64,000 nucleotides of DNA from Escherichia phage BF17. Shown here piece after piece: positions 18,242-64,000 of this stretch. How positions within the stretch are numbered: position 1 is the stretch's first letter; each line of letters opens with the position of its first letter. The notes under the pieces were generated by a model, which saw only the letters and a program-made list of their open reading frames with translations, searched no databases and was not told where the DNA came from. The position numbers and the translations under genes were made by a program. The stretch lies in the sequence record MW822008.1; one strand, 5' to 3'.

Positions 18242-18301
18242 TCATCCCTCCATTGGTATAATTATTATAACGTATTTATTCTAGATAGGTAAAAAAGCAC
18301 C

Positions 18302-23015: not shown

Positions 23016-23984
23016 GTGAAAAAGCTTGATTTAAATGCAATTTCTGAAGAAGTACTGGATGAGTGTTTTGCTAGTGAAGAAGTCAACGTATTAGAGGCTC
23101 TTGATTCCGTCGAAGAAGAAGAAGAACATGACGGTCACAAGTTTGAGAAACCAAAAACAGGTATCAGCTTAACTCGCCCTAAAGGGATAACGAATGAAAT
23201 GCTCATCCAAGCAGTGCGTGATGGTATTGACGTTGAAAAGAACATTGACCTTTTGGTTCGCTACAACTATCCAATGGTAGTAAGTGTTGCACGTAAGTGT
23301 ACATGTTTTATCCCATTTGAAGATAAGATTTCTTATGGTGTTGAAGGTTTAATGCGAGCAATTCATACGTTCGACACTACCAAAAATGTTAAGTTCATTA
23401 CATATGCAACAACAACTGTGTACATGACAATCTATAACGAAAGTGCAGATGCTAATTATCTAGTGCATTTCCCACGTTATATGAGTGTTAATAACATTTA
23501 TGTGAAACGTTGTGTAGAAGAGTATCAAAGGAAACATGGTAAATACCCAACTCCTGAGATGGTGTCAAAAGAGACTGGTATTGAGATTCAACACGTTAAG
23601 AATTGTCTAACTTACAATAACACTTATGTAGCATTGAATATGAAAATGAGTAATGATTCAGAAAGTACATTATCTGACATTGTTACTTCAGTTGAACCTG
23701 ATTACAACTTAGGCGTAGAAACTGTCAGTACCCCACTGGTACAAAGTATTGCAGAAATGATGAGTAACCTATCTGCCAAAGACCGTGAATTGATTGAACG
23801 TGTACATGGTATTGGTTCTTATTCTGAACCAGAAACGCTACGAGAAATCATTGAGAGTGGTTTTGAAGATGAGAAGGGTAAGGTCATGACTGCTCGTTCT
23901 TCATTGCACCGCAAGTACTCTGAAGCAATGGAACGTCTTCGTAAGATGGTGAAGACGCAAGGTTACGAGTTCGAAGATTTTTAA
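23016..23984 (+). CDS. sigma-70 family RNA polymerase sigma factor (phage-encoded)
   Basis: GTG start after AGGAGA RBS; GVEGLMRAIHTFD...FITYATTTVYMTI resembles sigma70 region 2; C-terminal ...TLREI...RSSLHRKYSEAMERLRK resembles region 4. Confidence 0.6.
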   Translation: MKKLDLNAISEEVLDECFASEEVNVLEALDSVEEEEEHDGHKFEKPKTGISLTRPKGITNEMLIQAVRDGIDVEKNIDLLVRYNYPMVVSVARKCTCFIPFEDKISYGVEGLMRAIHTFDTTKNVKFITYATTTVYMTIYNESADANYLVHFPRYMSVNNIYVKRCVEEYQRKHGKYPTPEMVSKETGIEIQHVKNCLTYNNTYVALNMKMSNDSESTLSDIVTSVEPDYNLGVETVSTPLVQSIAEMMSNLSAKDRELIERVHGIGSYSEPETLREIIESGFEDEKGKVMTARSSLHRKYSEAMERLRKMVKTQGYEFEDF

Positions 23985-30713: not shown

Positions 30714-30760
30714 GGTTCTTGTAGTCTGAAACTTAACACTTAAACTTGAGGATATAAAAC

Positions 30761-36836: not shown

Positions 36837-36867
36837 GGTTGACTTCGGTCAACCTTTTCTTTATACT
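36837..36867 (+). promoter_or_regulatory. terminator hairpin with embedded -35 and downstream TATACT
   Basis: GGTTGAC-TTCG-GTCAACC + TTTTCTTT then TATACT. Confidence 0.6.
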
Positions 36868-36895
36868 ATAAATATAGTCATAGAGAATAAACAAT

Positions 36896-41429: not shown

Positions 41430-41549
41430 GTTTCACTATGGGGAATGTACCAGGCACGGTGTATGTAGATGATGCTGAGTTGAAAGAAAGCTTCAAAAAC
41501 TTATCGCATCTTGAACCACAATACGCACATGAAATGAATTTATTTTGAG

Positions 41550-41577
41550 TTGACAAACTCATTCAGTACTGTATAAT
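41550..41577 (+). promoter_or_regulatory. sigma70-like promoter TTGACA-N16-TATAAT
   Basis: ...TTCAGTACTGTATAATGTTTAT family. Confidence 0.6.
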
Positions 41578-41624
41578 GTTTATCAAGGGGATGAACTTCT
41601 CATCCCCACAATCGAGGAATTGTC

Positions 41625-50252: not shown

Positions 50253-50258
50253 TAAAAA

Positions 50259-50283
50259 ATCCAGTACTATAATAGTACTGGAT
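50259..50283. terminator. bidirectional terminator between convergent blocks
   Basis: ATCCAGTACT-ATAAT-AGTACTGGAT palindrome with A/T runs on both sides. Confidence 0.65.
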
Positions 50284-50288
50284 TAATT

Positions 50289-51413
50289 TTAATTATCTAA
50301 GCCACCAATTACACTGAACAGTGTGGTAACGTCTGAACTATTATCTATGTAAGTTCTTCTACCAACATAATATAGTTGTCCTTTTGCTTGAATAAAAGTT
50401 ACGGTCCCTGTATTGAATGTTATAATATCATTGTATGTAATGTCAGGTGGTAGTGCTGCTGATAACGCAGTAACTTTACTTAATGCAGCACTAGTACTAC
50501 CATTTATACCAGCAGCAATACTACCAGTACCATAGAACTTATTATCTTTACCAATGAATACGTTGGCTGATGCTTGTGTAGCTGATGTTATTGCCTTACC
50601 AATTTGGAATGCGGTTCCTATGGTGTATGGTGTGCTCCTGGCTGCGTCTATGCTTTGTGTATATCCATCCCCTAGCTGACCATTAACTTTGTCACCACAT
50701 GAGTATAAAGTACCATTGAGGCTGTATATGATCCCACGGTTAGAGAAGCTAACAGCTTCTGCATTAGTCCATACTGGAGCGGTGTATGAGTTTACACGAC
50801 TAGCAGTAGTTCCTAGTCCTAGTATACCATATGTGTTATCACCACATCCAAACCATTGTCCAGTACTGTTTTGATAGAACACTGAACGTTCTGTTGATTC
50901 CATGCGTACAGCATCCACAGCACCACTTTTAACGAACGAAGTGGATGAGGATGTAGTACCAGTACCCAATGCACCATAAGTGTTTGTACCAATCGCATAG
51001 ATTGATCCTAGTGGTGTCATCACACGTATACAGTTATATCCCAATTGAACTTTACATTCAAATAGGTTGTCCCATATTTCAGGAACAGCAGAAAATAAAT
51101 TTGTAATTTCGAACCATGATGTTGTCGAACCAATTAATCCTATACTGCTTTTGTTTCCTAAAATGAAAACAGTTTTGTCCTTCTTAATTATCCATGATGA
51201 TAGGAAACCTATCTCACAGCTATGAACATTTGATTCTATTTGGGTAATATAATACTTAACTGTGTTATCACCCATGAATGCCGCAGCACCGGATGCAAAA
51301 AGGTTTCCAGTTTGTTTATTTAAAATGTAGTTATTGTTTCCATATACACTAACATCATAAGAACTTTCTTGTTTTTCGTTCCCATAATCAAATAACAATA
51401 CGAAAGGTAACAT
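50289..51413 (-). CDS. RCC1-like repeat protein, MLPF-leader family member 1
   Basis: 374 aa; MLPFVLLFDYGN leader variant; G-x-N-x-x-G-Q-L-G-x-G repeats (GCGDNTYGILGLG, SCGDKVNGQLGDG); GGAG RBS. Confidence 0.8.
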   Translation of the reverse strand: MLPFVLLFDYGNEKQESSYDVSVYGNNNYILNKQTGNLFASGAAAFMGDNTVKYYITQIESNVHSCEIGFLSSWIIKKDKTVFILGNKSSIGLIGSTTSWFEITNLFSAVPEIWDNLFECKVQLGYNCIRVMTPLGSIYAIGTNTYGALGTGTTSSSTSFVKSGAVDAVRMESTERSVFYQNSTGQWFGCGDNTYGILGLGTTASRVNSYTAPVWTNAEAVSFSNRGIIYSLNGTLYSCGDKVNGQLGDGYTQSIDAARSTPYTIGTAFQIGKAITSATQASANVFIGKDNKFYGTGSIAAGINGSTSAALSKVTALSAALPPDITYNDIITFNTGTVTFIQAKGQLYYVGRRTYIDNSSDVTTLFSVIGGLDN

Positions 51414-51490
51414 GATAAAATCTCCTTGTGTTATACTTTATTTAATCATTTTATAATGTACAATTTTACAGCGATTTAATTGAGGTACTC

Positions 51491-52141: not shown

Positions 52142-52147
52142 AAGAAA

Positions 52148-52167
52148 AGCCAGTACATAGTACTGGC
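52148..52167. terminator. bidirectional terminator
   Basis: GCCAGTAC-ATA-GTACTGGC palindrome between convergent genes. Confidence 0.6.
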
Positions 52168-52173
52168 ATTATA

Positions 52174-53310
52174 TTAAACTGGTGGAGAATTATATGGCTC
52201 AAATTTATAAGTTGTCGTAGCAGTACCAGCAATGGCGTTGTTAGCTAGTATGTACATAGTCCTGTAGTCGATTACCACTACAGTAATACTACCACCAAAA
52301 GCATAGTCTGTTATGTTATTAGTGTTGAATGGTAAATTAGATGAACTGGTCCATGTATTAGCTGTTGTGCTATTTGTACCATTGGAATAACCTACACTAG
52401 ATGCACCAGTTGTCCATAAGTTTCCATCATTGAACAAGGAGACATGGTTAGTTGTATATGATTTATTAGGTATAGAACTATCAATTGGTGTATTCCAAAC
52501 TTTAGTAACCCATGTTGTAACTGCTGTATTATTAGTAACGCCATTACCTAATGAACCATTTATTGGTATACCTCTTATATAAGAAGTGTTAGTACTAGGG
52601 TCAACATATCCAAATGTATATGTATCAAATGCAAATTGAAAACAATCAGAACTCGGTAATGTGTACAGTAATGTATATGAAGACGTGTTTATTGATGAAT
52701 TTGTACCGTTCACACCTTGGTATAAAATACCACTAGCCAATATTTGATTATTATTTTTTGTTATAGTGTTCATTGATGGATATGTTTTCACATCACGCAC
52801 ATCATTAGTCACATATGTTTGTGTTGATAATGCAACGTTACTACCATTACCTATAACCCCTGTATTTGCACCACTCCCATAAAGTGAACCATCATTCAAA
52901 AGAACCATTGTAACATTACCATTTCCCGTAATTGTTTTAATATTACTAACATCCACCGCAGCAAATACAGTTGATGTTAAATCAGTGAAACGTGTATAAT
53001 GTGATGTTGTGCCATTGATTGGTGTCGCAAAACCAGAATACAAAATTCTATTTTCTTTGGTAATAAGGAATGTGCCAGTAACACCATTTGAATGGATATC
53101 AACAATATTATCGCCCATTAATACCCAATCACTTACGAATGTTGTTGTACCAGTACCCAACCCATATGTCGTATTGTATCCACGTCCATACACTCTACCA
53201 TCACTGAGTAATGTTACCACACATTGACCACCACCACCAAGTATAACTTTTTGTATAGTACTCTTTACTTTTATATTCCCGTACTTAACCATTCTTGCAA
53301 AAGGTAACAT
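52174..53310 (-). CDS. RCC1-like repeat protein, MLPF-leader family member 2
   Basis: 378 aa; MLPFARMVKYGN; co-transcribed with member 3 (14-nt gap with AAGGAG). Confidence 0.85.
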   Translation of the reverse strand: MLPFARMVKYGNIKVKSTIQKVILGGGGQCVVTLLSDGRVYGRGYNTTYGLGTGTTTFVSDWVLMGDNIVDIHSNGVTGTFLITKENRILYSGFATPINGTTSHYTRFTDLTSTVFAAVDVSNIKTITGNGNVTMVLLNDGSLYGSGANTGVIGNGSNVALSTQTYVTNDVRDVKTYPSMNTITKNNNQILASGILYQGVNGTNSSINTSSYTLLYTLPSSDCFQFAFDTYTFGYVDPSTNTSYIRGIPINGSLGNGVTNNTAVTTWVTKVWNTPIDSSIPNKSYTTNHVSLFNDGNLWTTGASSVGYSNGTNSTTANTWTSSSNLPFNTNNITDYAFGGSITVVVIDYRTMYILANNAIAGTATTTYKFEPYNSPPV

Positions 53311-53324
53311 TCTTTTTCTCCTTG

Positions 53325-54473
53325 TTATATTGATGGCATATCCAACACATATGAGTTGCTAGTGATTGATGAATATGTAGAATTTAAACCTGTACTATAA
53401 ACATAATCACCTGCCCATAAGAATGTTCTATCCAATGTTGTATGTATTTCAATATCATCATATGATGATAATGATATTTGTGCTAGTGTATATGTAGTAG
53501 CATCAATGTTTGAACCAATACCCAAAGTACCATTGTATTGTGATTGGGAGTTTTGACCAGTTGCATATATACCAGATTTGGTTATTAAATGCTGATTATA
53601 CATTGACGTACCTTTAAACAATTTAATTAAATTAGAGTTAGGTGTTGTTATTTGTGCAGGAGCAAGTATTGTTGTTGTAGTGCCACCATCACCTAATTGT
53701 CCATATCGTTGGTAACCACCAGCGTATACCTGTTTAACTCCAGTAGTAGTTTCTATAATAAAGAATGAACCATAGCCAGTAGTATTAAAGTCTATAATTT
53801 TATTTGTACTCAAACCAACATTATATCTAGTAAATGTTGTTGCATTAGCAGAACCACCAGCATTCCCACCGACCATTTGACCACTATAATAAAATGCACC
53901 AGTACTGTCAGTATAAGCCATACAGTTCTCACTACCATAGATTTTTACTGGTGTACTGGGGAAACTAGAGGTTATATTCACACATGTATTATATTTTGCA
54001 GTAGTTCCAGTAATTTCACCATTGTTGTTTTGACCAATTGCCCAAACTGTGTCATCGGAACGTATAGCCATTGAGCTAAAAAACGATGACACAAATTGTT
54101 TAATAAAGGAACCAGGGAGGGAAGTAAGCATACTATTGATTTGTGCACTCACATTGGTCCATGTATTCACAACTGAATTGACACCTGCCGCTGCACCTGA
54201 ACCTGAACTCCACCATGATTCATCATTCTTTTTAATCAATGTACCGTTAGCAGAACAATAAACATCAGCAACTGAACTATTAACTAATATCCATTCCCTC
54301 GCTGTTGTGGTATTACCAGTACCTAGCTGTCCTGCTGCATTACTACCCTTAGCATATAAATCACCACTCTGCGTTAAAAGCATAGCATGTTGGTATCCAG
54401 TAGATAATTTCTTTATTTTTGGTAATGCTGGTGCTTCATTTCCATAATCAAACATTCTAACAAAAGGTAACAT
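53325..54473 (-). CDS. RCC1-like repeat protein, MLPF-leader family member 3
   Basis: 382 aa; MLPFVRMFDYGN; AKGSNAAGQLGTGNTT, AGGYQRYGQLGDGGTT. Confidence 0.85.
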   Translation of the reverse strand: MLPFVRMFDYGNEAPALPKIKKLSTGYQHAMLLTQSGDLYAKGSNAAGQLGTGNTTTAREWILVNSSVADVYCSANGTLIKKNDESWWSSGSGAAAGVNSVVNTWTNVSAQINSMLTSLPGSFIKQFVSSFFSSMAIRSDDTVWAIGQNNNGEITGTTAKYNTCVNITSSFPSTPVKIYGSENCMAYTDSTGAFYYSGQMVGGNAGGSANATTFTRYNVGLSTNKIIDFNTTGYGSFFIIETTTGVKQVYAGGYQRYGQLGDGGTTTTILAPAQITTPNSNLIKLFKGTSMYNQHLITKSGIYATGQNSQSQYNGTLGIGSNIDATTYTLAQISLSSYDDIEIHTTLDRTFLWAGDYVYSTGLNSTYSSITSNSYVLDMPSI

Positions 54474-54543
54474 AATTCCCTCCTTTATTCATTATACTAT
54501 ATTTAATCAAAAAGAAAAGCCAGCACTCTGTACTGGCATAATA
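54474..54543 (-). terminator. array cassette: terminator hairpin + TATAAT + AAGGAGG
   Basis: Minus strand reads GCCAGTACAGAGTGCTGGC-TTTTCTTTTT...TATAGTATAATGAATAAAGGAGG-ATG. Confidence 0.65.
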
Positions 54544-55695
54544 TTATTTCCACGGTAGAAGTGAATCTGGAACTCTTGTTGGTACATTGGTTGTTGACAC
54601 ACCTGTGAGATTTGGAACACCACATGTATATAAATTATCAGCTTCATCCACTAGCATTGTATAAGAATATCCCCTACAAAAACTACCAATTGCACGGCCT
54701 TCTAATGCAGAAAGATTCATTTCAGTAAATGTTGTTATATTTGCCACGTTTGAACCAACACCACATTGACCATTTGTATTCAGACCACATAAAAATAACT
54801 TATTATTATTTTTAATTGTACATGATGGCCCTGCAAGGTTTGTGCCAAGTTCACCCACCAACTCTATTTCACCTTGGAATGATAAATTTGGAATTAATGC
54901 ACTCATAGGAACTGGTGTTGTATTTCCAGTACCAGCTTGTCCCCTAACGTTAGTTGAAGCCACTTTGACGGTCCCATCATTAAGAAATATATAAGAAGTT
55001 TCAATTGTATTGACTGCTTTAGTCGCAGTAATAATAGAAGATTCTTGAGTAAATGTTAGTACGTTTTGTGCTGATGTTCCTGATACAAATGTATTACCTG
55101 CGTACCAATATGTGCCATCATTGAGCACTAATCCAGTACTGCGTATTGCACACCCAGCACTTCGAACATTTTCAATAGTACTATAAGTGAATTGTGTAAC
55201 GCTTGCAGTTGAACCATTTCCAAATACACCACCTATTCCCGCTCCACAGTAGAACCACTTTCCATTTTTTAAAAATACACGTAAACAACCAGATATAACA
55301 ATATTATCAATATCATCTGCAATAACACCGAAGTCAGCAAAGTTCTGTGTTACTTCAACCCAAACACCGTTGGTATCTGCTGATAATATTGGAATTACAG
55401 ACCTTGAACCAGTGTACCAAATAGTTCCATTTTTCTTAATAGCAATTGTACCTTGAACACCACCCCAATAACGTTCCACATTTGTATTGACATTAGTCCA
55501 TGAAGTTGATGTGTTAGTTGAGCCATATGCACCATTACCGCTTTGTCCATATGTTGCTGTACCATACCAATATAGATCGCCTGTAGTGTGTAAATAAAAT
55601 TTGGAATCAGCCGAGCATTGTAATCTATTTTTAAATATAGGTTTTGGCTCTGGTGCTACATTCCCGAACTTAACCATTCTTGCAAAAGGTAACAT
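54544..55695 (-). CDS. RCC1-like repeat protein, MLPF-leader family member 4
   Basis: ORF track extends to 55761 through the RBS; trimmed to MLPFARMVKFGN start. Confidence 0.85.
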   Translation of the reverse strand: MLPFARMVKFGNVAPEPKPIFKNRLQCSADSKFYLHTTGDLYWYGTATYGQSGNGAYGSTNTSTSWTNVNTNVERYWGGVQGTIAIKKNGTIWYTGSRSVIPILSADTNGVWVEVTQNFADFGVIADDIDNIVISGCLRVFLKNGKWFYCGAGIGGVFGNGSTASVTQFTYSTIENVRSAGCAIRSTGLVLNDGTYWYAGNTFVSGTSAQNVLTFTQESSIITATKAVNTIETSYIFLNDGTVKVASTNVRGQAGTGNTTPVPMSALIPNLSFQGEIELVGELGTNLAGPSCTIKNNNKLFLCGLNTNGQCGVGSNVANITTFTEMNLSALEGRAIGSFCRGYSYTMLVDEADNLYTCGVPNLTGVSTTNVPTRVPDSLLPWK

Positions 55696-55772
55696 ATTTC
55701 CTCCTTTATTCATTATACTATATTTAATATAAAAAGAAAAGCCAGTATCAAGTACTGGCATAGTATTAAGGT
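55696..55772 (-). terminator. array cassette: terminator hairpin + TATAAT + AAGGAGG
   Basis: GCCAGTACTTGATACTGGC hairpin family. Confidence 0.65.
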
Positions 55773-56903
55773 TTAAATATTTTTATAATTAATTTCTACA
55801 TAGTTACGTTGTGTTCCAGTATATCCTGGAACATTACCTAAATTTCCATTACCTGCACCAAACAGACGTTCTCCGACTGCAAAATATGTCCCATAGAAAC
55901 AACCATCAAACACAGGAACATCATTATAATTTGATATGTAATTATCCATTGAATCCATTCTAGTGTATGCAGTCAGAGTTACATTTGTACCTATACCATA
56001 TGCACCATAAGGGTTAGTACCAGCAACATAATACCCAGTGGGTGTACATATTACTGGTGAATTTGCCCCTGATCTCGTGTGGATAAATCTAAATGTACCT
56101 TCAGGTACTGGTGCTTCTTTACTGAATAATGTTGTAGCTACTACTGGGTAATCAATACCATAACTATTACCACTCAACCACGTTTTACCATCACTATCTT
56201 TGAATAATGAACAGGATTGTGTGCATCCGAACAGATTCAAATTGGTTACATTTGGAAATTTACTAATTTGTGTATATACCAGAACTGTGGTTGCGGTAGC
56301 ACTACCAAGTTGTCCACGACCATTATCACCCGCACTGTACATGTACCCATCGGTCTTTAATATTATACTAGCGTTTCCTAAAATATCAAAATCAACAACA
56401 TCCGTTTGTGTTAATGTAGCTATAGGATAACGAAAATTCACTGCCTCACCAGTACCAAATTGACAATTGGTGTTTACCCCACATCCATATAAGTTGCCGT
56501 TTTGCATTAATATAAACAAACCTGTTGTCATTTTAATTTTCTTAATATTAAGAATATCTATATCTTGGAATATGTGTGTTACATTTACAAATGTGGTTGA
56601 GTTAACAGCACTTGAACCATAATAAGAACCGTTCCCGCTACCAAAGAATTCATCGCCTTTTCTGTACATTGCACATAGACTGCCACCCCATACATCATCA
56701 ACTCCAGTGTCAATTTGAATAACTGAAGTAACACTAGTTGTTGCACCAGTGCCAAGTTCACCACCTGAATTGAATCCAAAACCATACAAATCTCCACTTT
56801 CGGTGAGCACCAAAACACTGTTAGTGGTTGTGCATGAAATCTTTTTGATATTATTAGATGGTCTTTTATTTCCGTACTTAACCATTCTTGCAAAAGGTAA
56901 CAT
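55773..56903 (-). CDS. RCC1-like repeat protein, MLPF-leader family member 5
   Basis: Trimmed to MLPFARMVKYGN; GFGFNSGGELGTGATT, SAGDNGRGQLGSATATT. Confidence 0.85.
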   Translation of the reverse strand: MLPFARMVKYGNKRPSNNIKKISCTTTNSVLVLTESGDLYGFGFNSGGELGTGATTSVTSVIQIDTGVDDVWGGSLCAMYRKGDEFFGSGNGSYYGSSAVNSTTFVNVTHIFQDIDILNIKKIKMTTGLFILMQNGNLYGCGVNTNCQFGTGEAVNFRYPIATLTQTDVVDFDILGNASIILKTDGYMYSAGDNGRGQLGSATATTVLVYTQISKFPNVTNLNLFGCTQSCSLFKDSDGKTWLSGNSYGIDYPVVATTLFSKEAPVPEGTFRFIHTRSGANSPVICTPTGYYVAGTNPYGAYGIGTNVTLTAYTRMDSMDNYISNYNDVPVFDGCFYGTYFAVGERLFGAGNGNLGNVPGYTGTQRNYVEINYKNI

Positions 56904-56980
56904 AATTCCTCCTTTATTCATTATACTATATTTAATCAAAAATAAAAGCCAGTATCAAGTACTGGCATAGTTTTATAGTA
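56904..56980 (-). terminator. array cassette: terminator hairpin + TATAAT + AAGGAGG
   Basis: Conserved cassette copy. Confidence 0.65.
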
Positions 56981-58090
56981 TCATTTCGGCATTGTAATTG
57001 CAGACCATGAGTTCGTGGTAATAGGACCTGGCACATACAAAAAAGAACCACAAGCATAAATTTGATTATTACCATCAAATACTATACTAAAATGTGCACA
57101 TGTGTATAATGCTGATTTTTCTGGGTTGTAATTATCTAAAGTTAGTGTATTGGTGAATCTACTCAAACCACCACCAGAACCATTTCTACCAAATTCACCA
57201 GTACTATATATCTTTCCTTCGGTTGTTGCGTACATATTAACATATGAAGTTGCACTTGATTTTGATATTTTATGTATCTTACTATCAATAGTAGTGGAGT
57301 TAAATGCAAATGGATATACTTGTGTGTTCGTTGTAATACCGTTACCAAGTTGACCAACATACTGCCAACCTGCGTTGTATATATTGCTGGCTGAATAAGC
57401 AAGAGTACCAGTACTGTTACCACCAAACAGTTTAACACTGGTTAACCTGCTTACTAGTGTAGTATACTGTCCTGGACTTACGCCAAGTGAACCATACCCA
57501 CTACTCCCACAACCGAGAAGTTCACCATTTGATGTTAATATTAATGTGTTATTCTGTGTACCCAATATATCAAGGACTGTATTAGCTCCGGTATTAATAA
57601 CTGAAACAAAAGTACTCTGAGCCGTGGAATACCCACCACCGAGTGAATAGTTACCATTCATGCCTCTACCATAAACAATCGAACCACTAGCATCAACGTA
57701 GTGCATTGTATCTGCACCAATTGATATCATTTTAATATTAGATATATGTGGAAATGAAGAAGTAACATTCAAACCACCCAACGGAATCGTAGTATTTCCT
57801 GTGCCTAATTGTGTGGTAACTCCATGCATTATGAATTCTTCACCCTTGATATAAAGAATATTGTACGCCCCAGCCCATGCATCAGTAACACCTTCTGAAA
57901 TTAATATCCAAGTATTTCTTGTTGCTGTATTTGTAACGTTTAACTGAAAATACGAATTAACCCCACAACCATAAAGTGAGCCATCGCCATAGAGGACGTA
58001 CAAATTATCAAGACCGCACAGTACTTTCTTTATCTTTGGATCTTCAGGTGCAATATTCCCGTAATCAAACATTCTAACAAAAGGTAACAT
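56981..58090 (-). CDS. RCC1-like repeat protein, MLPF-leader family member 6
   Basis: Trimmed to MLPFVRMFDYGN; AGWQYVGQLGNGITT. Confidence 0.85.
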   Translation of the reverse strand: MLPFVRMFDYGNIAPEDPKIKKVLCGLDNLYVLYGDGSLYGCGVNSYFQLNVTNTATRNTWILISEGVTDAWAGAYNILYIKGEEFIMHGVTTQLGTGNTTIPLGGLNVTSSFPHISNIKMISIGADTMHYVDASGSIVYGRGMNGNYSLGGGYSTAQSTFVSVINTGANTVLDILGTQNNTLILTSNGELLGCGSSGYGSLGVSPGQYTTLVSRLTSVKLFGGNSTGTLAYSASNIYNAGWQYVGQLGNGITTNTQVYPFAFNSTTIDSKIHKISKSSATSYVNMYATTEGKIYSTGEFGRNGSGGGLSRFTNTLTLDNYNPEKSALYTCAHFSIVFDGNNQIYACGSFLYVPGPITTNSWSAITMPK

Positions 58091-58161
58091 ATTTCCTCCT
58101 TTATTCATTATACTATATTTAATACAAAAAGAAAAGCCAGTATCAAGTACTGGCCTATATC
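58091..58161 (-). terminator. array cassette: terminator hairpin + TATAAT + AAGGAGG
   Basis: Conserved cassette copy. Confidence 0.65.
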
Positions 58162-58899
58162 TTAGACTGAATTGTCAGGATAATATCTCCCACGTCCCCA
58201 TATTATTCGCACAGCACCACCACCAGCAGCCGTATAAGAAGAATTATCCCATATACTACCACCACCACCATACCTCTTACCAGCACCACCACTACCAGCA
58301 CCACCATTATATGAACCATCGTAGCTACCACCAATACCATTAGCACCTTGAACAATGATACCAGTACCACCACCCGTACCAATGAACGAGGTATTATAGA
58401 ATGCACCACCACCACCGCCCCCGCCAGCACCATTTTCACCAGTGATTGCATTTCCGTTACCACCTTTACCTGTGTAGCCACCAGCACCACCACCAATGAC
58501 TGCACCACCACTTAAACCAGTGTTGCCACCATTACCACCACCATCATTAATAGCGTTAGCAGCTTTTCCACCTAGTCCACCAACCGTATATGCACCAGTG
58601 AAGCTAACACATAGTTTTTCAGTTCCACGATATAAACCGTTTTCAACTGCTGTAGTAGTGTTGGGATGTGTAAGAGAAACACTTAAGTACTCACCACCAG
58701 AAACCGGAATATTATTACGCCACGATAAGCCGCCACCAGCACCACGTTGACCACCCGGCGAAATAACACATACTGATATTTCGGTAACGCCAGCAGGAAC
58801 TGTAAATTGTGTTGTTCCTATTGTCGTGATTAATTGTTCACCATGTGGCTTATATTCAATTTTATTCCCGAACTTAACCATTCTTGCAAAAGGTAACAT
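58162..58899 (-). CDS. glycine-rich protein with MLPF leader, family member 7
   Basis: 245 aa; MLPFARMVKFGN then FTVPAGVTEISVCVISPGGQRGAGGG and long GGxGG tracts; no RCC1-like motifs. Confidence 0.8.
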   Translation of the reverse strand: MLPFARMVKFGNKIEYKPHGEQLITTIGTTQFTVPAGVTEISVCVISPGGQRGAGGGLSWRNNIPVSGGEYLSVSLTHPNTTTAVENGLYRGTEKLCVSFTGAYTVGGLGGKAANAINDGGGNGGNTGLSGGAVIGGGAGGYTGKGGNGNAITGENGAGGGGGGGAFYNTSFIGTGGGTGIIVQGANGIGGSYDGSYNGGAGSGGAGKRYGGGGSIWDNSSYTAAGGGAVRIIWGRGRYYPDNSV

Positions 58900-58970
58900 A
58901 ATTCCCTCCTTTATTCATTATACTATATTTAACCAAAAAGAAAAGCCAGTATCAAGTACTGGCTTTTACA
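58900..58970 (-). terminator. array cassette: terminator hairpin + TATAAT + AAGGAGG
   Basis: Conserved cassette copy. Confidence 0.65.
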
Positions 58971-60161
58971 TTACAATTGTCTAGGTGTATCCAGTACATA
59001 TCTATTTGTACTAGGACCACCATCATCATAAGTTCCGGTTGAATATATATTTTTCATATCAGCAGTTAGGAAAGTACGTAACGACCCTCGATATATTTTT
59101 ATTTTATCATACATAGAATATGTTATTTCTGACGGCAATGGACATGCAGTAAATTTACCAATGGTAACATTAGAACCAACACCCAATGAACCAGCATAAC
59201 TACTCGCATTTAAACCTGTTGCATATACACCAGAACTCGTAACTAGTATACTAGATTGTGCTGGGTATCCAGTATGAATTGAATACAAAGTACCGGGTGG
59301 TAAGGTTGAACTATTATTTCCTAATACTGCTCGTGCTGTACTAGACGTAGTGTTATTACCCCATGCCCCATTATTGGCGTTCCCACCCACTAGGAACTGA
59401 CGTGCTCCTGTACTTGGATTCTCCACTAAAGCACTGACTGCACCAATTGTACATACAACATATTGTAATGTTTTTGTATATGTTGTACTTGGCTGATATA
59501 AAGTATATTGATTGTATGGAGTCCATGTATCAGTAGTACTTATACCTGATGTACTACCACCAATATATAAATTATTTTGTGTATCATAAAACATTACACA
59601 GCTATTTGTTGACTGTATTCGTGCAATATCAACATTAGGCGTGACAGCTTTTACAAATGATCCATCTGTTATTTGTTGAGTACTACCAGTACCATCAGCG
59701 AATTGTCTAGCCCCACTCCAACCAGTACTCCATATTGTATTATTATCCATTAAGAAAGTAAACCAAGTAGTACCTGCATACATCTGTTTAATTGAAGTAC
59801 CTGAACTTTGTGTGTACAAATTTTCAATATATTGGTTATAACTTAAAAATGATGTAGTACTAGTTTCTAAACCAATATGACCACCATATCCACAATAAAA
59901 ATAATTTAAGTCCTTATCTTGAACTAACAAAGTTCCTTGTGTCATCCAGCAATCTTTGACATTTTCTCTAATTAATGTCCACGACCTTACTGCATTATTA
60001 TTTCCGCGACCGAACTTCCCATAACTATTATTTCCTCGTGCGTATAGTTGACCGTCAGTATAAAGTACAACCACATCAGTATCAGTTGGTATTATTTTCT
60101 TAATTAGAAGAGGTTCAGGTGTGATATTCCCATAATCAAACAATCTAACAAAAGGTAACAT
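58971..60161 (-). CDS. RCC1-like repeat protein, MLPF-leader family member 8
   Basis: 396 aa; MLPFVRLFDYGN; ARGNNSYGKFGRGNNN. Confidence 0.85.
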   Translation of the reverse strand: MLPFVRLFDYGNITPEPLLIKKIIPTDTDVVVLYTDGQLYARGNNSYGKFGRGNNNAVRSWTLIRENVKDCWMTQGTLLVQDKDLNYFYCGYGGHIGLETSTTSFLSYNQYIENLYTQSSGTSIKQMYAGTTWFTFLMDNNTIWSTGWSGARQFADGTGSTQQITDGSFVKAVTPNVDIARIQSTNSCVMFYDTQNNLYIGGSTSGISTTDTWTPYNQYTLYQPSTTYTKTLQYVVCTIGAVSALVENPSTGARQFLVGGNANNGAWGNNTTSSTARAVLGNNSSTLPPGTLYSIHTGYPAQSSILVTSSGVYATGLNASSYAGSLGVGSNVTIGKFTACPLPSEITYSMYDKIKIYRGSLRTFLTADMKNIYSTGTYDDGGPSTNRYVLDTPRQL

Positions 60162-60231
60162 ATTTCCCTCCTTTATTCATTATACTATATTTAACCAAAA
60201 AGAAAAGCCAGTACTTGATACTGGCGTAATG
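60162..60231 (-). terminator. array cassette: terminator hairpin + TATAAT + AAGGAGG
   Basis: Conserved cassette copy. Confidence 0.65.
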
Positions 60232-61374
60232 TCAATAAGCTTCCCACGGTAAGGGTGTCTTCCTAAATCCATACCTGGTTGTGGTCGCACCATCACCAGC
60301 AATGTATCGACCGATACCACATTGGTATAACTCTGTACTACTACATATAGCACCACCAATAGTACCACTACTCCACAGAATTATATTAGAATATGTTATT
60401 GGTAAATCACTACATTTAGTATATACACCAACGGTAGCAGCCCCACTAATACCACCAAACATACTTCGGTTAGCACCAGTATAATATATACCATCTGGAC
60501 TCATAAATGCAGAGGTGTAAGTTGTACTACAATCCACTGGACTTCTTATAGTATTAAGATCGCCTGGGTATGTCCTGGCACCAAAGGTGTATACATTACC
60601 ATCAGTTGTAATACCATTACCTAACTGCCCACTGTTTTGTCCACCACATGTAAGCAACAATGCAGAACCAGAAACAATTGCAGTAGCATTATACGAAGTA
60701 CCCATCGCAATAGAAGCACCAGACAATAGTTTTGGAGTAACAATAGCTGTTGTATTACCCTGGCCTAATTCACCATTGATATTTCGTCCCCATGCGTATA
60801 TAGAAGTTGTATCCAATCGACATAGTACTGAACCATAACTAAACGTATATCGCATGTCAATTACCGCATTAGGCAAATTAACCTTAGTTGCAACACTAAT
60901 AACACCACCAGTAACACCACTGTTTGCGTTCATGTTACGACCATATGCATATAAAGAACCATCTGAAGTTTTAATATGCATCATACCATCTGTACAATAC
61001 AATGCATCTATACTATCCACTGCAACCGGACCCATACTGGTAGTTATATCGGTCCACCCAAGCGTGGTAGTACTGGAAATTAAGTTATTTCCGGCGTATA
61101 GTATTCTATTATTATTAGTAACTACAACTGTATATCTGGCAGTAACACCAATTAATCGAACATCAGTATATATCTTAGACCACGCACCTAATGAATTGGT
61201 GTTTGCATCCAAAAAGCCCAACTGCCCATCTGTATTGTATCCAATACCCCATACATCACCTGCACTGTCCAATAACACTTCATGTGAAAATCCAATCTTA
61301 AAATCTTTTATTGTAGGAACTACCGGAACTGGTGCAATATTCCCGTACTTAACCATTCTAGCAAAAGGTAACAT
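60232..61374 (-). CDS. RCC1-like repeat protein, MLPF-leader family member 9
   Basis: 380 aa; MLPFARMVKYGN; GIGYNTDGQLGFLD, AWGRNINGELGQGNTT, CGGQNSGQLGNGITT. Confidence 0.85.
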   Translation of the reverse strand: MLPFARMVKYGNIAPVPVVPTIKDFKIGFSHEVLLDSAGDVWGIGYNTDGQLGFLDANTNSLGAWSKIYTDVRLIGVTARYTVVVTNNNRILYAGNNLISSTTTLGWTDITTSMGPVAVDSIDALYCTDGMMHIKTSDGSLYAYGRNMNANSGVTGGVISVATKVNLPNAVIDMRYTFSYGSVLCRLDTTSIYAWGRNINGELGQGNTTAIVTPKLLSGASIAMGTSYNATAIVSGSALLLTCGGQNSGQLGNGITTDGNVYTFGARTYPGDLNTIRSPVDCSTTYTSAFMSPDGIYYTGANRSMFGGISGAATVGVYTKCSDLPITYSNIILWSSGTIGGAICSSTELYQCGIGRYIAGDGATTTRYGFRKTPLPWEAY

Positions 61375-61445
61375 AATTCCCTCCTTTATTCATTATACTA
61401 TATTTAATACAAATAAGAATGCCAGTATCAAGTACTGGCATTATG
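61375..61445 (-). terminator. array cassette: terminator hairpin + TATAAT + AAGGAGG
   Basis: Conserved cassette copy (weaker U-tract). Confidence 0.6.
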
Positions 61446-62555
61446 TTATTTTGGTAAATCAATTTTAGTAAAGACTGCAACATCCTCGCTTGCTCCAGGA
61501 ATGGCGTAATACGATCCAGTACTATACACATCTCCATCTTTGGTTAATATTGATGTCAAACCATCACTAAAAAGAACATCCCTAATTGCACTAACTTCAA
61601 CGGGTAATTGTAAATTTGTAGCACTATATATAGCACCAGTTTGAGAATTGTTTAATCCCAAACCACGGTTCGCCCCAACACCCTTCTGATATGTACTAGT
61701 AATTACCATTTGTGTCGCAGTATTTAAGGCAGGTGAATTCGTCATAAACAACGGAGAACTATTCGGCAAAGTACTTACAGGAACTGCACGGAATGTAGTC
61801 GTACCTGAACTAAGAAAGTTTGGAGTTTGACCACATACGAAATATGATGTGCCATTATAGTAATTTAATGCATTACCACCAATTGCTGCATCGATTACAC
61901 CAGAACTACGTAATCCCCAAGTGTTAACTTGTGTTTGGCTCCCCGTGCCATGCTGCCCACTGCTATTCCATCCAGAACTATATAGCTTATTATCTAATGT
62001 AAGATACATACTATCATTCGCATTGGTCATTACTTTACGAACGTTCGTAGCACATTGAGTTAATGTGTAAATTGATGATGAACCAATACCTAAAGAACCA
62101 CGATATCCATTATCTCCTGCACCATAGAGTACTGAATTAGTGCTAAGTACAAATATTAAACCATTTGTACATACAATATTAGCAATTTCACTTACTGGTA
62201 TTGCATTTGTGAACCAACTGGTTCTATCAACTAATACAGTACTGTAAGAAGTAGTTGTGGAAGATGTGAACCAGTACGTTTGACCTGATGACCATATCGT
62301 ATTATCATTTTTAATAATAACAAGTGTACGATCACCCACGAAAAAATTAGAAACATCTGTACTTACTAATATCCATGAGGATACTGTGTTGGTATTTCCA
62401 TTTCCAGATTCACCACCTTGATTTCTACCTATGTAATATAAATCATGTGAATCTGTCAATAAGAATTGACCCTGTGTAGAAGCACCAACTTTAATTATAT
62501 TTTTAGGACCAGGTGTGATATTCCCATAATCAAACAATCTAACAAAAGGTAACAT
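61446..62555 (-). CDS. RCC1-like repeat protein, MLPF-leader family member 10
   Basis: 369 aa; MLPFVRLFDYGN; co-transcribed with member 11 (10-nt gap with AAGGAG). Confidence 0.85.
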   Translation of the reverse strand: MLPFVRLFDYGNITPGPKNIIKVGASTQGQFLLTDSHDLYYIGRNQGGESGNGNTNTVSSWILVSTDVSNFFVGDRTLVIIKNDNTIWSSGQTYWFTSSTTTSYSTVLVDRTSWFTNAIPVSEIANIVCTNGLIFVLSTNSVLYGAGDNGYRGSLGIGSSSIYTLTQCATNVRKVMTNANDSMYLTLDNKLYSSGWNSSGQHGTGSQTQVNTWGLRSSGVIDAAIGGNALNYYNGTSYFVCGQTPNFLSSGTTTFRAVPVSTLPNSSPLFMTNSPALNTATQMVITSTYQKGVGANRGLGLNNSQTGAIYSATNLQLPVEVSAIRDVLFSDGLTSILTKDGDVYSTGSYYAIPGASEDVAVFTKIDLPK

Positions 62556-62565
62556 ATTTCTCTCC

Positions 62566-63696
62566 TTAATTTAGTAATGCCCCTGGCAAATCCACTTTGA
62601 CGAATTGTGCATATGCTGAGGAATTTTGATCAAAGTTTGGTCCCAATCCATAAAATGAGCTAATGCCGTCTTCATTTGTGTATATGATATAAACGTTCTT
62701 TACATCATTTCCGCATATAAATCGAATGTCTTTCGTTTGTGTTCCCGCTGGAACATTACGAAGGTTCACAACGCCATTACTTGCATTGTTATCAGCCGAC
62801 GCAATTGGTAATTGATTTTGACCATATTGACCACGCATATTTTTTGCATCTAAACCAAACACAGTATCTGATACCGCACCAACTTTCAAAAATGAACCAA
62901 AACTATTATTGAATGACTTTGGAAATGTACCACTATAAACACTTCTCCCATCTGATAATACCGCTGAACTGAATTTCCCGCTATTCGATATGGCAAATTC
63001 ATTGTAAGGAAGTGTACCCATTTTGGTATATACAGAATATGAATTAGTGGAAGTATTATCAATAATCTTATTACCATTATATCCAATACCATACTGGTAT
63101 CCGTCTGCATCTTGAACTATACACAAAGGACCACTTGGGGTTTGTGTCAACGAAACAACACGTTCAACTTGTATATCACCAAATGTATTTCTTCGCCATG
63201 TTCTATCTATTATAGTACTAGTATTACCCAAAGATAATGCCACACTATATAATAGATTGTTTTCAGTAAAAATGGCAACATAATATGCGTGGTTAATAAC
63301 TTGCTTCATCCCAGCATCAATAACTTCCTGTGGAATATGATCAGTAACATCCAACCAATCAAGGTTAGATGATGCAATATCTGGAGTACTGAATTTGTCA
63401 AATCTAGTTGAGCCACAAACTAGCACTCTATCATCATTTGTCAAAGCCACTGTGCTAGTCTGCATATTAGAACTGAATGATTTAACATTACTAATGTTAG
63501 ACTTGTACCAACCCTTATCAGCAGCACCCACCGTGAATCCGGTTCCCATTGATCCACTTGTACTTGTACCATAAGCCCACATCTCACCACTATATGTTAG
63601 TGCCATACAGTGGCTTCCATTTGCTTGGAAATCCTTTATACCAGTGGGAGCAACCACTGTATTCCCATAATCAAACATTCTAACAAAAGGTAACAT
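62566..63696 (-). CDS. RCC1-like repeat protein, MLPF-leader family member 11
   Basis: Trimmed to MLPFVRMFDYGN; AYGTSTSGSMGTGFT. Confidence 0.85.
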   Translation of the reverse strand: MLPFVRMFDYGNTVVAPTGIKDFQANGSHCMALTYSGEMWAYGTSTSGSMGTGFTVGAADKGWYKSNISNVKSFSSNMQTSTVALTNDDRVLVCGSTRFDKFSTPDIASSNLDWLDVTDHIPQEVIDAGMKQVINHAYYVAIFTENNLLYSVALSLGNTSTIIDRTWRRNTFGDIQVERVVSLTQTPSGPLCIVQDADGYQYGIGYNGNKIIDNTSTNSYSVYTKMGTLPYNEFAISNSGKFSSAVLSDGRSVYSGTFPKSFNNSFGSFLKVGAVSDTVFGLDAKNMRGQYGQNQLPIASADNNASNGVVNLRNVPAGTQTKDIRFICGNDVKNVYIIYTNEDGISSFYGLGPNFDQNSSAYAQFVKVDLPGALLN

Positions 63697-63770
63697 AACT
63701 AAAATCTCCATATAATAATTATAATGTATTTACAAAAAAATACCAGTACGTATTTCAGTACTGGTATCAT
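63697..63770 (-). terminator. variant array cassette: terminator hairpin + TTATAAT + GGAG
   Basis: Minus strand ATACCAGTACTGAAATACGTACTGGTAT + TTTTTTT then TTATAAT and GGAG before ATG. Confidence 0.6.
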
Positions 63771-64000
63771 TTATGGTAAAATGATAGATTGTAACGAACT
63801 CATACCCAATGCTGGAACACTAGCCTGTGGTGCTGGAGAATTCAATTTTGGTGATGAAACCGCATAAGTCATTCCTGTACCCAAATCTGGATCAAAAACT
63901 ACAGCACAATAATTCCCACTATATATAAGTCCATTCTTGTATCCTTGTGCACTTTGAATGCATTTCGTGAACGTACCAATATCTGTAGTGGCATTTATTA
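63771..64000 (-). CDS. C-terminal fragment of a further beta-rich gene (family member 12, truncated by window edge)
   Basis: Minus-strand frame open from window edge to TAA (plus 63771-63773); translates ...GTGMTYAVSSPKLNSPAPQASVPALGMSSLQSIILP. Confidence 0.5.
   Translation of the reverse strand, partial: INATTDIGTFTKCIQSAQGYKNGLIYSGNYCAVVFDPDLGTGMTYAVSSPKLNSPAPQASVPALGMSSLQSIILP

Follow-up and report, generated by a model that had tools for sequence, protein, structure and literature searches.

Promoter-early stem-loops (PeSLs) are small repeated intergenic cassettes of T4-type phages, in which a stem-loop terminator is combined with a promoter, a Shine-Dalgarno sequence, and a start codon (Arbiol et al. 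2010, PMC2839356; Comeau et al. 2014, PMC4122927). Neighbouring PeSL copies recombine, giving rise to encapsidated mini-circles (PMC2839356). In the internal-protein locus of T-even phages, varied and fast-changing packaged proteins share a short N-terminal peptide, the capsid targeting sequence (CTS; PMC3012670). T4 late promoters have no −35 element, carry an AT-rich downstream segment, and tolerate changes at positions −13 and −12 (PMC2988020). Here, we analysed a stretch of 64,000 nucleotides from Escherichia phage BF17 (record MW822008.1; hereafter the window), the source of which is an Asteriusvirus, a 121Q/phAPEC6-like jumbo coliphage. Its minus strand holds an array of genes, mostly RCC1-like beta-propeller paralogs, separated by a repeated cassette that is a new variant of the PeSL kind, PeSLs of T4-type phages being the closest known system. 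Proteins of this type are annotated in the literature as 'DNA condensation' proteins or 'chromosome condensation regulator'.

A cassette repeated at the gene boundaries of the array

The 23-mer TATAGTATAATGAATAAAGGAGG has seven exact copies in the window (0 mismatches, 0 expected by chance), all on the minus strand and standing 5' of the ATGs at 61374, 60161, 58899, 58090, 56903, 55695, and 54473. A GCCAGTA(N3-5)TACTGGC hairpin with a U-tract stands before each copy, which is followed by ATGTTACCTTTTG and leads into ATG-TTA-CCT-TTT. The initial annotation had reported such a cassette before most array genes, in seven near-identical copies and one variant, and both counts hold. The variant, 5' of the ATG at 63696, has a longer hairpin, TAAATACATTATAAT, and GGAG; to it we add a third, still more diverged version 5' of the eleventh member (ATG 51413). 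Hairpin-only putative terminators lie 3' of the genes ending at 52174 and 50289 (Table 1).

The homology block measures approximately 105 bp, with approximately 72 nt upstream and 36 nt of coding sequence. Its proposed continuation into the first 12 codons is borne out by the mean pairwise identity, which is 0.87 over codons 1–12, 0.41 over codons 13–24, and 0.32 deeper. Alignment of the intergenic blocks, which the initial annotation had suggested as a check, showed that the conservation is real across the seven window copies and across 50 copies from 7 genomes. Two boundaries had been described as lacking the cassette, and the starts at 62555 and 53310 indeed carry just a Shine-Dalgarno sequence 10–15 nt past the preceding stop codon. 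Given this spacing, the suggested co-transcription of the gene pairs A-B and I-J is plausible.

Table 1. Coordinates of the array genes, their cassettes, and related features in the window
Feature	Position	Strand	Description
Variant terminator hairpin	63739..63768	-	After partial type-M gene; 11-bp stem, 8-nt loop, U-run; −15.0 kcal/mol
Variant promoter-like motif	63718..63732	-	TAAATACATTATAAT, 5' of gene A
Gene A	62566..63696	-	RCC1-like; leader MLPFVRMFDYGN
Gene B	61446..62555	-	RCC1-like; without cassette, Shine-Dalgarno 10 nt past A stop
Cassette B|C	61339..61442	-	Hairpin 61418-61442, TAAATATAGTATAAT 61392-61406, Shine-Dalgarno, codons 1-12
Gene C	60232..61374	-	RCC1-like beta-propeller
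Cassette C|D	60126..60225	-	Hairpin loop inverted (TCAAG) relative to other copies
Gene D	58971..60161	-	RCC1-like
Cassette D|E	58864..58967	-	
Gene E	58162..58899	-	245-aa glycine-rich protein
Cassette E|F	58055..58156	-	
Gene F	56981..58090	-	RCC1-like
Cassette F|G	56868..56966	-	
Gene G	55773..56903	-	RCC1-like; true start 56903 rather than the TTG further upstream in the mechanical ORF
Cassette G|H	55660..55759	-	
Gene H	54544..55695	-	RCC1-like; missing in fEgEco12
Cassette H|I	54438..54537	-	Stem G-U pair, valid in minus-strand RNA only
Gene I	53325..54473	-	RCC1-like
Gene J	52174..53310	-	RCC1-like; without cassette, Shine-Dalgarno only
Hairpin-only copy	52149..52167	.	Putative terminator common to J (-) and convergent + gene 51491-52141
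Diverged promoter-like motif	51430..51444	-	TAAATAAAGTATAAC, 5' of member K
Gene K	50289..51413	-	RCC1-like; leader MLPFVLLFDYGN; then bidirectional hairpin 50258-50284
Motif of the same class	18264..18278	-	ATAAATACGTTATAAT, 5' of gene 17084-18241
Gene 17084-18241			Sole other minus-strand gene; virion structural protein phrog_10468, without MLPF leader
Sigma-70-family factor	23016..23984	+	Regions 2 + 3 detected

The array encodes virion proteins with a common leader peptide

RCC1-family profiles (PF00415, PF13540, PF25390) match 10 of the 11 array proteins. For H, PF25390 is the sole match and falls under the gathering cut-off, as does the repeat match of J; the remaining eight RCC1-like proteins pass the repeat-family cut-off. 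The exception is the glycine-rich gene E protein, which has no Pfam match, is not RCC1-like, and is assigned to phrog_4474, and which keeps the same leader. The bodies of the paralogs share just 0–44% amino-acid identity pairwise, and the duplication that produced them is older than the split of genera. The AF2 model of protein C is all-beta (pTM 0.80), with residues 1–10 outside the fold (pLDDT 49). Orthologues of C (phAPEC6 gp005, 99.7% amino-acid identity) and F (phAPEC6 gp009, 98.6%) are among the array proteins present in phAPEC6 virions analysed by mass spectrometry, and the array proteins are virion proteins. The array is located inside an early-gene region and extends past the end of the window with a partial type-M gene, whose end is near 63776.

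The 12-codon leader encodes M-[LI]-P-F-x-R-x-x-x-Y-G-N. In the window its codons are uniform, with TTA, CCT, and AGA used in 10–11 of 11 genes; they vary in phage 7t3. The peptide itself is kept, with varying synonymous codons, in Salmonella 7t3, Cronobacter GAP32, and Yersinia fHe-Yen9-04. Proteins bearing it have RCC1-like, ConA-like lectin (PF13385), or Gly-rich (PF21722) bodies, and its flavour (ARMVKYG, VRMFDYG, GRMVKYG, or ARMMNYG) is uncoupled from body type. The initial annotation had treated these codons as added homology; they do belong to the shared block, but they also specify a peptide whose amino-acid sequence is kept in other genera. Since other genera retain the peptide with different codons and unrelated folds carry it, the leader is probably a functional signal, possibly one that serves virion incorporation.

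A TTAAATA box in a promoter-like element without a −35

The initial annotation had pictured TATAAT as a −10 without a good −35, read by a phage-modified polymerase or by the phage sigma factor at 23016. The cassettes have no sigma-70-type −35 at proper spacing, in agreement with that picture. A consensus scan lists just one cassette copy, B|C, at the bare threshold of 9 of 12; in this match an unconvincing −35, CTGGCA, taken from the 3' arm of the hairpin, is paired with TATAGT and not with TATAAT. A promoter-like element lacking a −35 is therefore retained, but TATAAT as its key is not, since TTAAATATA is invariant in the 50 cassette copies from 7 genomes while TATAAT varies (TATAAC, TATATT, TATAAA). 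The invariant element TTAAATA lies directly upstream of TATAAT. Only TAAATA is retained in other genera, and the Yersinia phage array keeps GGGTAAATATGAT with TATAAT missing. TATAAT is thus probably not the key promoter element.

Several observations point to a late box. The structural genes of phAPEC6 have TATAAATA or ATAAATA upstream, and 18 of the 33 TAAATA hexamers in its structural module are found no more than 100 nt upstream of a start on the same strand; the upstream space holding them makes up 3.7% of the module sequence, corresponding to a 15-fold enrichment. In the window, TAAATA and TATAAATA are depleted, and both TATAAATA sites precede virion-protein ORFs. The pattern TAAATA-N3-TATAAY has 10 matches there; each is on the minus strand and precedes either an array gene or the other virion gene of that strand. 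The cassette box, (A/G)TTAAATA, agrees with TATAAATA at 6 of 8 positions and differs at −13/−12 only. From these comparisons we infer that TTAAATA is a promoter, and a late one. Outside this window, phAPEC6 gp237c matches phrog_234, a late sigma transcription factor (E = 8e-18). A gp55-like late sigma appears to be a better candidate reader than the RpoD-like sigma at 23016, because TAAATA is the late-box core and the array proteins are virion proteins. The ORF at 23016 is a genuine sigma-70-family gene, as initially annotated, but nothing ties it to the cassette.

The alternative, that TATAAT is a sigma-70-type −10 read without a −35 through the RpoD-like sigma (23016-23984) or a modified polymerase, which would make the array genes middle or early, is in our judgement unlikely. 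In its favour, most copies have TATAAT as a perfect −10, the TGATATAAT of the first array gene in the relatives agrees with an extended −10, the array sits in the early-gene region, and the ORF at 23016, with Pfam regions 2 and 3 and no region 4, would suit −35-less promoters. However, AG rather than TG stands upstream of the cassette TATAAT, and its critical last T is lost in the recurrent variants TATAAC and TATAAA and position 5 altered in TATATT, whereas TTAAATATA never varies. The Yersinia phage array without TATAAT and the virion nature of the products likewise argue against it, as do the true early promoters of the window, which are different: early genes on the plus strand have canonical TTGACA-N14-TGTATAAT promoters. 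The perfect TATAAT could still be a genuine sigma-70-type −10 that gives earlier or dual expression.

Exchange of array genes among related phages

The initial annotation had proposed that the cassettes are a substrate for recombination and that related phages should be compared. We compared the window with six relatives and found the array gene order permuted among the 7 phages. The order of body types is (M) A B C D E F G H I J K in the window, L T N M O B U C D E F G I J K in fEgEco12, L P B H D E Ac C R F in 121Q, and L N M B C E D V H in UE-S1. Inside cassette zones, which are 126 bp each and together cover 9% of the region, lie 29 of the 30 internal BLAST homology-block ends (P = 2.8e-29), a statistic that indicates cassette-bounded exchange of gene units and not a mechanism, as BLAST blocks tend to end in any conserved intergenic element. 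The G|I junction of fEgEco12 consists of the window G 3' flank up to ATGCCAGTAC followed by the window cassette upstream of I. This chimeric junction places the crossover within the hairpin stem and explains why gene H is present in one phage and absent from the other. The comparison strongly backs the conclusion that whole genes have been exchanged, acquired, and lost among relatives precisely at the cassettes, and the proposed role as a recombination substrate is thereby upheld. The cassette was found in all 36 Asteriusvirus-like records, in 3–15 places each, with the exception of EJP2, which has 2 partial matches.

We detected no excess of within-genome homogenisation, cassette similarity being 0.906 within and 0.899 between genomes, and part of the identity is due to purifying selection acting on the signals. 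It is very unlikely, in our view, that the cassettes are merely regulatory signals inherited through tandem duplication and held by purifying selection, with recombination incidental. This explanation fits the identity of approximately 0.90 in same or different genomes, the plausible regulatory or coding function of every part, and the flanking early region, which is about as mosaic as the array. Yet the synonymous codons of the window leaders are uniform although the bodies have diverged so far since a duplication that predates the genera, spacer positions without obvious function are shared too, and crossovers in the block are evident from the exact chimeric junction and from the permuted orders.

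Hairpins resembling intrinsic terminators

The hairpins are placed exactly after stop codons. In the scan their stems have 7–12 pairs (8–11 bp in array cassettes), their loops 3–8 nt, and their energies range from −10 to −15 kcal/mol, with UUUUCUUUUU tails. A GC-containing stem, a short loop, and an adjoining U-tract are the features of intrinsic (Rho-independent) terminators, and the same sites are annotated as terminators (ARNold) in the phage G17 record. The hairpins are accordingly predicted to end transcription of the upstream gene. AGTACT, which forms their stems, is approximately 8-fold over-represented throughout the window (171 observed, 20.7 expected), and this, together with the crossover in the stem at the fEgEco12 junction and the one copy with an inverted loop, would suit binding or processing sites on a genome-wide CAGTACTG motif, targeted by a phage DNA- or RNA-binding protein or nuclease and acting as recombination hot spots; that they are such sites and not terminators is highly improbable in view of the stem, loop, and U-tract geometry, the position after stop codons, the ARNold calls in G17, and a G-U pair that is valid in minus-strand RNA only.

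Discussion

We consider it probable that each ~105-bp block is a composite gene-boundary cassette that both punctuates and shuffles a hypervariable virion-protein array. Four parts would make up the block: an intrinsic terminator with an 8–11 bp GCCAGTA/TACTGGC stem and UUUUCUUUUU, ending the upstream gene; a promoter without a −35, whose core (A/G)TTAAATA would be a variant of the T4-type late box TATAAATA; a strong Shine-Dalgarno site, AAAGGAGG; and twelve codons for M-L-P-F-x-R-M-x-x-Y-G-N. TATAAT would lie in the AT-rich melting segment directly downstream of the TTAAATA box, and the promoter would most likely be read by host RNA polymerase with a phage gp55-like late sigma. The cassette would divide the array into mostly single-gene late transcription units, and its ~100 bp of portable homology would allow general recombination to delete, insert, replace, and reorder whole genes, both within one genome and between co-infecting relatives.

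The so-called DNA condensation proteins look like modular virion components with a conserved N-terminal tag, and they are probably ligand-binding. A more tentative idea, which we regard as possible but do not favour, is that the cassette is a plug-and-play display module: an ORF placed behind it would gain late expression, a strong ribosome site, a 12-residue docking peptide, and virion incorporation. Docking might take place at hair-like capsid and tail fibres, as observed on phAPEC6 and CBB, or the proteins might be head cargo. The array would then serve to diversify ligand-binding modules (beta-propellers, ConA-like lectins, and Gly-rich domains), tuning adsorption or host range. If the tag is a virion-incorporation signal, it would offer a ready-made tool to display or package foreign proteins on jumbo coliphages and a handle on host-range engineering of phages in development for therapy. 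More generally, the locus would represent a sequence-defined mechanism by which a jumbo phage diversifies 10–16 virion proteins by whole-gene exchange at ~100-bp regulatory and leader blocks.

The predicted promoter resembles T4-type late promoters in having one AT-rich box approximately one helical turn upstream of the (predicted) start, no −35, an AT-rich downstream segment, and virion genes downstream. The box deviates only at −13/−12, where T4 and Aeh1 also show variation. The genus has a gp55-family sigma, as does the gp55/gp33/gp45 system of T4; unlike in T4, homologues of gp33 and gp45 are reported missing in the related phage CBB.

Like the T4 CTS, the leader is a short N-terminal peptide on otherwise unrelated virion proteins, and several leader-bearing members occur in virions. 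To our knowledge, the two peptides have no sequence resemblance. The CTS is cut off by the prohead protease inside the head; leader residues 1–12 include no Glu-containing (L/I)xE prohead-protease site, which sets the leader apart from the CTS, and its role as a signal is putative. Under the display-module reading, the array and the T4 internal-protein locus would have analogous functions based on unrelated signals, that of the array being common to several jumbo-phage genera.

PeSLs and the cassette have the same set of elements, are both concentrated 5' of variable genes, and both bound indels and replacements between close relatives, for which they are read as portable shuffling homology. 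PeSL promoters are early promoters that match the complete sigma-70 consensus, with both −35 and −10, whereas the cassette has a late-type TTAAATA core and no −35. In the cassette, unlike in PeSLs, the stem-loop lies wholly upstream of the promoter and the homology takes in the first 36 nt of coding sequence, which specify a conserved N-terminal peptide. Genes at the cassettes encode paralogous virion proteins in Asteriusvirus, whereas those at the PeSLs of T4-like phages are ORFans. The PeSL idea, hitherto tied to early promoters of T4-like phages, would thus extend to late-type promoters, to coding sequence, and to another lineage.

Array genes and the block at their boundaries

The paralog array occupies the minus strand between 50289 and the window end and comprises eleven complete genes, A to K. 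A partial gene at the window end has a C-terminus 100% identical to that of type M in phage WPEC5. RCC1-repeat or RCC1-like-domain profiles match 10 of the 11 array proteins, whose bodies share 0-44% identity between paralogs. Gene E gave no Pfam match. Its homology to a Gly-rich (PF21722) protein of Salmonella phage 7t3 was considered and rejected, as BLASTP was not significant and Pfam was silent; the two show a resemblance only. A plus-strand gene of unknown function (phrog_34359) splits the array, and does so at the equivalent position in fEgEco12 and WPEC5; a 77-bp divergent control region separates it from K. A megablast search with 52000-64000 matched 36 records, all from jumbo Escherichia and Salmonella phages of the 121Q/PBECO4/phAPEC6/G17 group, genus Asteriusvirus, with fEgEco12 as the top match (97% identity over 69% of the query).

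Coordinates of the array genes and other features (ATG, plus-strand coordinate of the A; window unless stated)
Feature	Position	Strand	Remark
Gene A	ATG 63696	-	
Gene B	ATG 62555	-	
Gene C	ATG 61374	-	
Gene D	ATG 60161	-	
Gene E	58162-58899, ATG 58899	-	245 aa, glycine-rich
Gene F	ATG 58090	-	
Gene G	ATG 56903	-	
Gene H	ATG 55695	-	
Gene I	ATG 54473	-	
Gene J	ATG 53310	-	
Gene K	ATG 51413	-	
Divergent control region	51414-51490		77 bp
Gene splitting the array	51491-52141	+	phrog_34359
C|D hairpin	60207-60225	-	between genes C and D
U-tract/Shine-Dalgarno pairing	54500-54537	-	and equivalent positions in each cassette
Early-promoter family	8664-8730, 9085-9150, 26360-26410, 30670-30720, 41535-41585	+	
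TATAAATA octamers	35625-35632, 36867-36874	+	only two in 64 kb
ORFs downstream of the octamers	35665-36048, 36896-38407		
Sole other minus-strand gene	17084-18241	-	virion structural protein
Sigma-70-family ORF	23016-23984	+	
AGTACT example sites	50261-50281, 8698-8703, 26391-26396		
phAPEC6 tandem gene pair	350178-352598 and 1-2360		MK817115.1; two P copies 100% identical
fHe-Yen9-04 homologous array	663-6400		

The initial annotation described a regulatory cassette repeated before most array genes, in seven near-identical copies and one variant, and continuous with the first codons. This description was confirmed. The 23-mer TATAGTATAATGAATAAAGGAGG occurs in 7 minus-strand copies without mismatch, against 0 expected. 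About 20 nt upstream of each copy stands a GCCAGTA(N3-5)TACTGGC hairpin followed by UUUUCUUUUU, and ATGTTACCTTTTG begins 17-18 nt downstream. The variant precedes gene A and has a longer hairpin, TAAATACATTATAAT and GGAG. The two genes said to lack the cassette are B and J, which have a Shine-Dalgarno site only, immediately past the upstream stop codon. Averaged over all pairs of the seven copies, identity is 0.87 in codons 1-12 and drops to 0.41 in codons 13-24 and 0.32 beyond. The hairpins have folding energies of -10 to -15 kcal/mol, and one stem contains a G-U pair, which pairs in the minus-strand RNA only. The cassette is a real, well-defined feature.

Within the phage collection, the cassette was found in 36/36 Asteriusvirus-like records, and a diverged form was also found in the Munch/7t3 group. 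A 28-mer scan of IMG/VR for arrays of uncultivated phages returned a single 348,532-bp contig, almost certainly 121Q itself. The G17 record marks the homologous hairpin sites as ARNold terminators, and the UE-S1 record labels two of them 'repeat_region'. Such scattered GenBank annotations are the only earlier trace of the cassette found in Asteriusvirus; the literature on phAPEC6, fEgEco12, Sharanji, UE-S1, CBB and PA5oct yielded no description of it.

Two further observations concern the hairpins. The C|D hairpin reads GTATCAAGTAC in place of GTACTTGATAC: its loop is inverted together with the stem base pair next to it. It thus matches the reverse complement of its neighbours exactly, as though a palindromic element had flipped. 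The palindrome AGTACT occurs 171 times in the window, against 20.7 +/- 4.9 in dinucleotide shuffles, and is by far the most enriched of the 64 palindromic hexamers, at least six GC-rich ones being absent. It is spread evenly (8-17 per 4 kb), favours the context C-AGTACT-G, forms the terminator stems, sits in early-promoter spacers (cAGTACTGTATAAT) and occurs inside genes too.

Exchange of gene units at the cassettes

Body types were obtained by clustering the gene bodies, from residue 16 onward, of the window and six relatives. Array gene content and order differ among these phages; therefore, whole genes have been gained, lost, replaced and reordered.

Order of body types in the window and relatives
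Phage	Order
Window	(M) A B C D E F G H I J K
fEgEco12	L T N M O B U C D E F G I J K
WPEC5	L T M B C D E G Q Z I Aa Ab J K
121Q	L P B H D E Ac C R F
UE-S1	L N M B C E D V H
G17	W O B X L P D E Q Y R S

We then took BLAST blocks of ≥400 bp and ≥85% identity and located their internal ends. Of 30 such ends, 29 fall within the 126-bp cassette/leader zones, which make up 9% of the region (P = 2.8e-29), and the remaining one is 3 bp outside. The statistic points to exchange of gene units bounded by cassettes rather than to any mechanism, as block ends would favour any conserved spacer. Gene H gives the clearest case. The fEgEco12 G|I junction consists exactly of the window's 3' flank of G up to ...ATGCCAGTAC, followed by the cassette upstream of I in the window (AGAGTGCTGGC...). 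The difference at gene H between the window and fEgEco12 amounts to one gene plus one cassette, with the crossover in the hairpin arm. The 3' flank left of the hairpin accompanies the upstream gene; for instance, 'accaaaataacataatgccagta' comes after type B irrespective of the next gene. The variant cassette accompanies type M with A, B or O downstream, the crossover there lying in the leader itself. Leader flavour is also uncoupled from body type, type D carrying VRLFDYG, VRMFDYG, ARMVKYG or ARMMNYG across phages. Permuted orders, block ends and the chimeric G|I junction together strongly support the proposed shuffling of cassettes by recombination.

Two stronger claims were rejected. Cassette identity between different genes was 0.906 within a genome and 0.899 between genomes, giving no clear signal of concerted evolution; since it is about 0.90 in both cases, homogenisation within one genome is not claimed. 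Nor was support found for the array as a special hot spot, as relatives cover 19-71% of the adjacent early region and 15-69% of the array, which are similarly mosaic.

The array encodes virion proteins. Eight RCC1-like 'DNA condensation' proteins, gp003, 005, 006, 007, 009, 010, 549 and 551, figure in the virion proteome of phAPEC6 (PMC7247149). In the mapped phAPEC6 array, gp005 is orthologous to gene C (99.7% aa) and gp009 to gene F (98.6%), and the genes of the virion-detected proteins follow a canonical cassette or the first-gene promoter, or would share a transcript with a gene that does. The published DNA-condensation role is a guess derived from the name of eukaryotic RCC1. In MK817115.1, the phAPEC6 record, an 'L-like + P' gene pair occurs twice in tandem across the circular-record start, either a cassette-mediated duplication or an artefact of assembly or circularisation.

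A candidate late-type promoter

Promoter motifs were surveyed across 64 kb plus 50 kb. Plus-strand early genes have textbook promoters, TTGACA-N14-TGTATAATgttt. The octamer TATAAATA is depleted in the window (2 observed, ~12 expected), as is TAAATA on both strands (27 and 20 observed, 66 and 57 expected). The ORFs directly downstream of the two TATAAATA copies match 'virion structural protein' PHROGs and look like late genes within the early region. In the phAPEC6 structural module, TATAAATA or ATAAATA precedes capsid, scaffold, portal-neighbour and baseplate genes, among others, and 18/33 TAAATA hexamers are found in the 100 nt before a start on their own strand, a zone covering 3.7% of the module sequence. 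The composite TAAATA-N3-TATAAY matches the window 10 times, exclusively on the minus strand. Eight of these sites stand before array genes A and C-I, one before K, and the tenth before the sole other minus-strand gene.

The initial annotation had read TATAAT as a -10 element without a good -35. The second part stands: the sigma-70 consensus scan picked up the cassette a single time, through a weak 9-of-12 match combining a hairpin arm with TATAGT, and a sigma-70 site was rejected as the main promoter. The first part should probably be revised, as TTAAATATA is invariant in 50 cassette copies from seven genomes, whereas TATAAT is replaced by TATAAC four times and also by TATATT and TATAAA. Array promoters of more distant genera retain only (G)GGTAAATA, and that of Yersinia phage fHe-Yen9-04 has no TATAAT. 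T4 late promoters comprise an 8-bp box without a -35 and with an AT-rich segment downstream, and tolerate deviations at -13/-12 (PMC2988020). The cassette box, (A/G)TTAAATA, departs from TATAAATA at exactly these positions. Because of this match, the invariance of TTAAATATA, the variability of TATAAT and the gp55-family late sigma encoded in the genus, we infer that the cassette promoter is a late-type box, with TATAAT forming part of the melting region. Such a box would predict a leader of ~21 nt.

Alternatively, a -10-only promoter could be read with the RpoD-like sigma suggested by the initial annotation. The corresponding ORF does encode a real sigma-70-family protein, but the variation of TATAAT beside an invariant TTAAATATA favours the late-type box. 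Pfam finds regions 2 and 3 in this protein and no region 4, the -35 reader; it could have a divergent region 4 or be suited to -35-less promoters. No Asteriusvirus transcriptome was found in the searchable literature, including that on phAPEC6, fEgEco12, Sharanji, UE-S1, CBB and PA5oct.

The early plus-strand promoters form a near-identical strong family, TTGAC(A/T)-N14-TGTATAATGTTT, with two copies ~420 bp apart nearly identical across ~45 bp. This family resembles a classical promoter-early stem-loop (PeSL) repeat and could also mediate shuffling of small early ORFs.

Conservation of the 12-codon leader

Array proteins of Salmonella 7t3, Cronobacter GAP32 and Yersinia fHe-Yen9-04 start with M-[LI]-P-F-x-[RK]-[IML]-x-x-Y-[GA]-N, the Yersinia ones more loosely. 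Synonymous leader codons vary freely among the 7t3 paralogs (CCG/CCA/CCT, AGG/AGA/CGT, GGG/GGT/GGA/GGC), most of which are packed operon-style without cassettes. In contrast, window leaders have TTA-CCT in all copies, TTT in 10/11, and AGA in 10/10 copies with arginine at codon 6. The leader peptide is thus under old protein-level selection, whereas the nucleotide uniformity belongs to the one lineage where the cassette has spread. The leader is also found on unrelated bodies, namely ConA-like lectin/Laminin_G_3 proteins filed as virion structural (7t3_0120 and, with a weaker match, GAP32_002), as well as the Gly-rich-domain protein 7t3_0132 and gene E.

Other causes of leader conservation were considered. 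A role as a propeller strand is disfavoured by an AF2 model of the gene C product (pTM 0.80, shallow alignment), which places residues 1-10 outside the propeller with low confidence (pLDDT 49). Two RNA-level causes were rejected. Pairing of CCUUUU with the Shine-Dalgarno site is weak (-4.3 kcal/mol), absent from centroid folds and impossible with the 7t3 codons. Read-through RNA also allows the U-tract CUUUUCUUUUU and the Shine-Dalgarno region AAAGGAGGG to pair, but again weakly (~-7.4 kcal/mol) and not in centroid folds. RNA begun at the cassette promoter is free of the U-tract, and this weak pairing might couple translation to the internal promoter.

In fHe-Yen9-04, five tightly packed genes form the homologous array, an operon that has a single GGGTAAATATGAT promoter and lacks internal cassettes. 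The 7t3 array is intermediate, with a few cassettes bearing the same TTAAATATAGTATAAT and CCAGTAC hairpin. As judged from these arrangements, the cassette may have spread within an ancestral operon.

Comparison with known systems

For the leader, the nearest analogy is the T-even internal-protein locus, where diverse proteins have only a capsid targeting sequence in common (PMC3012670). The leader differs in having no T4-type protease site, and its signal function is putative; the finding would gain interest were the leader shown to direct virion incorporation. For the cassette, the closest described system is the PeSL, which combines a stem-loop terminator, a strong sigma-70 early promoter and a Shine-Dalgarno site, and whose repeats mediate modular shuffling in hyperplastic regions of T4-type phages (PMC2839356, PMC4122927). 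The cassette would work similarly, but it lacks one defining PeSL feature, the sigma-70 consensus early promoter, and has two additions, the putative late-type box and an extension into a conserved coding leader.
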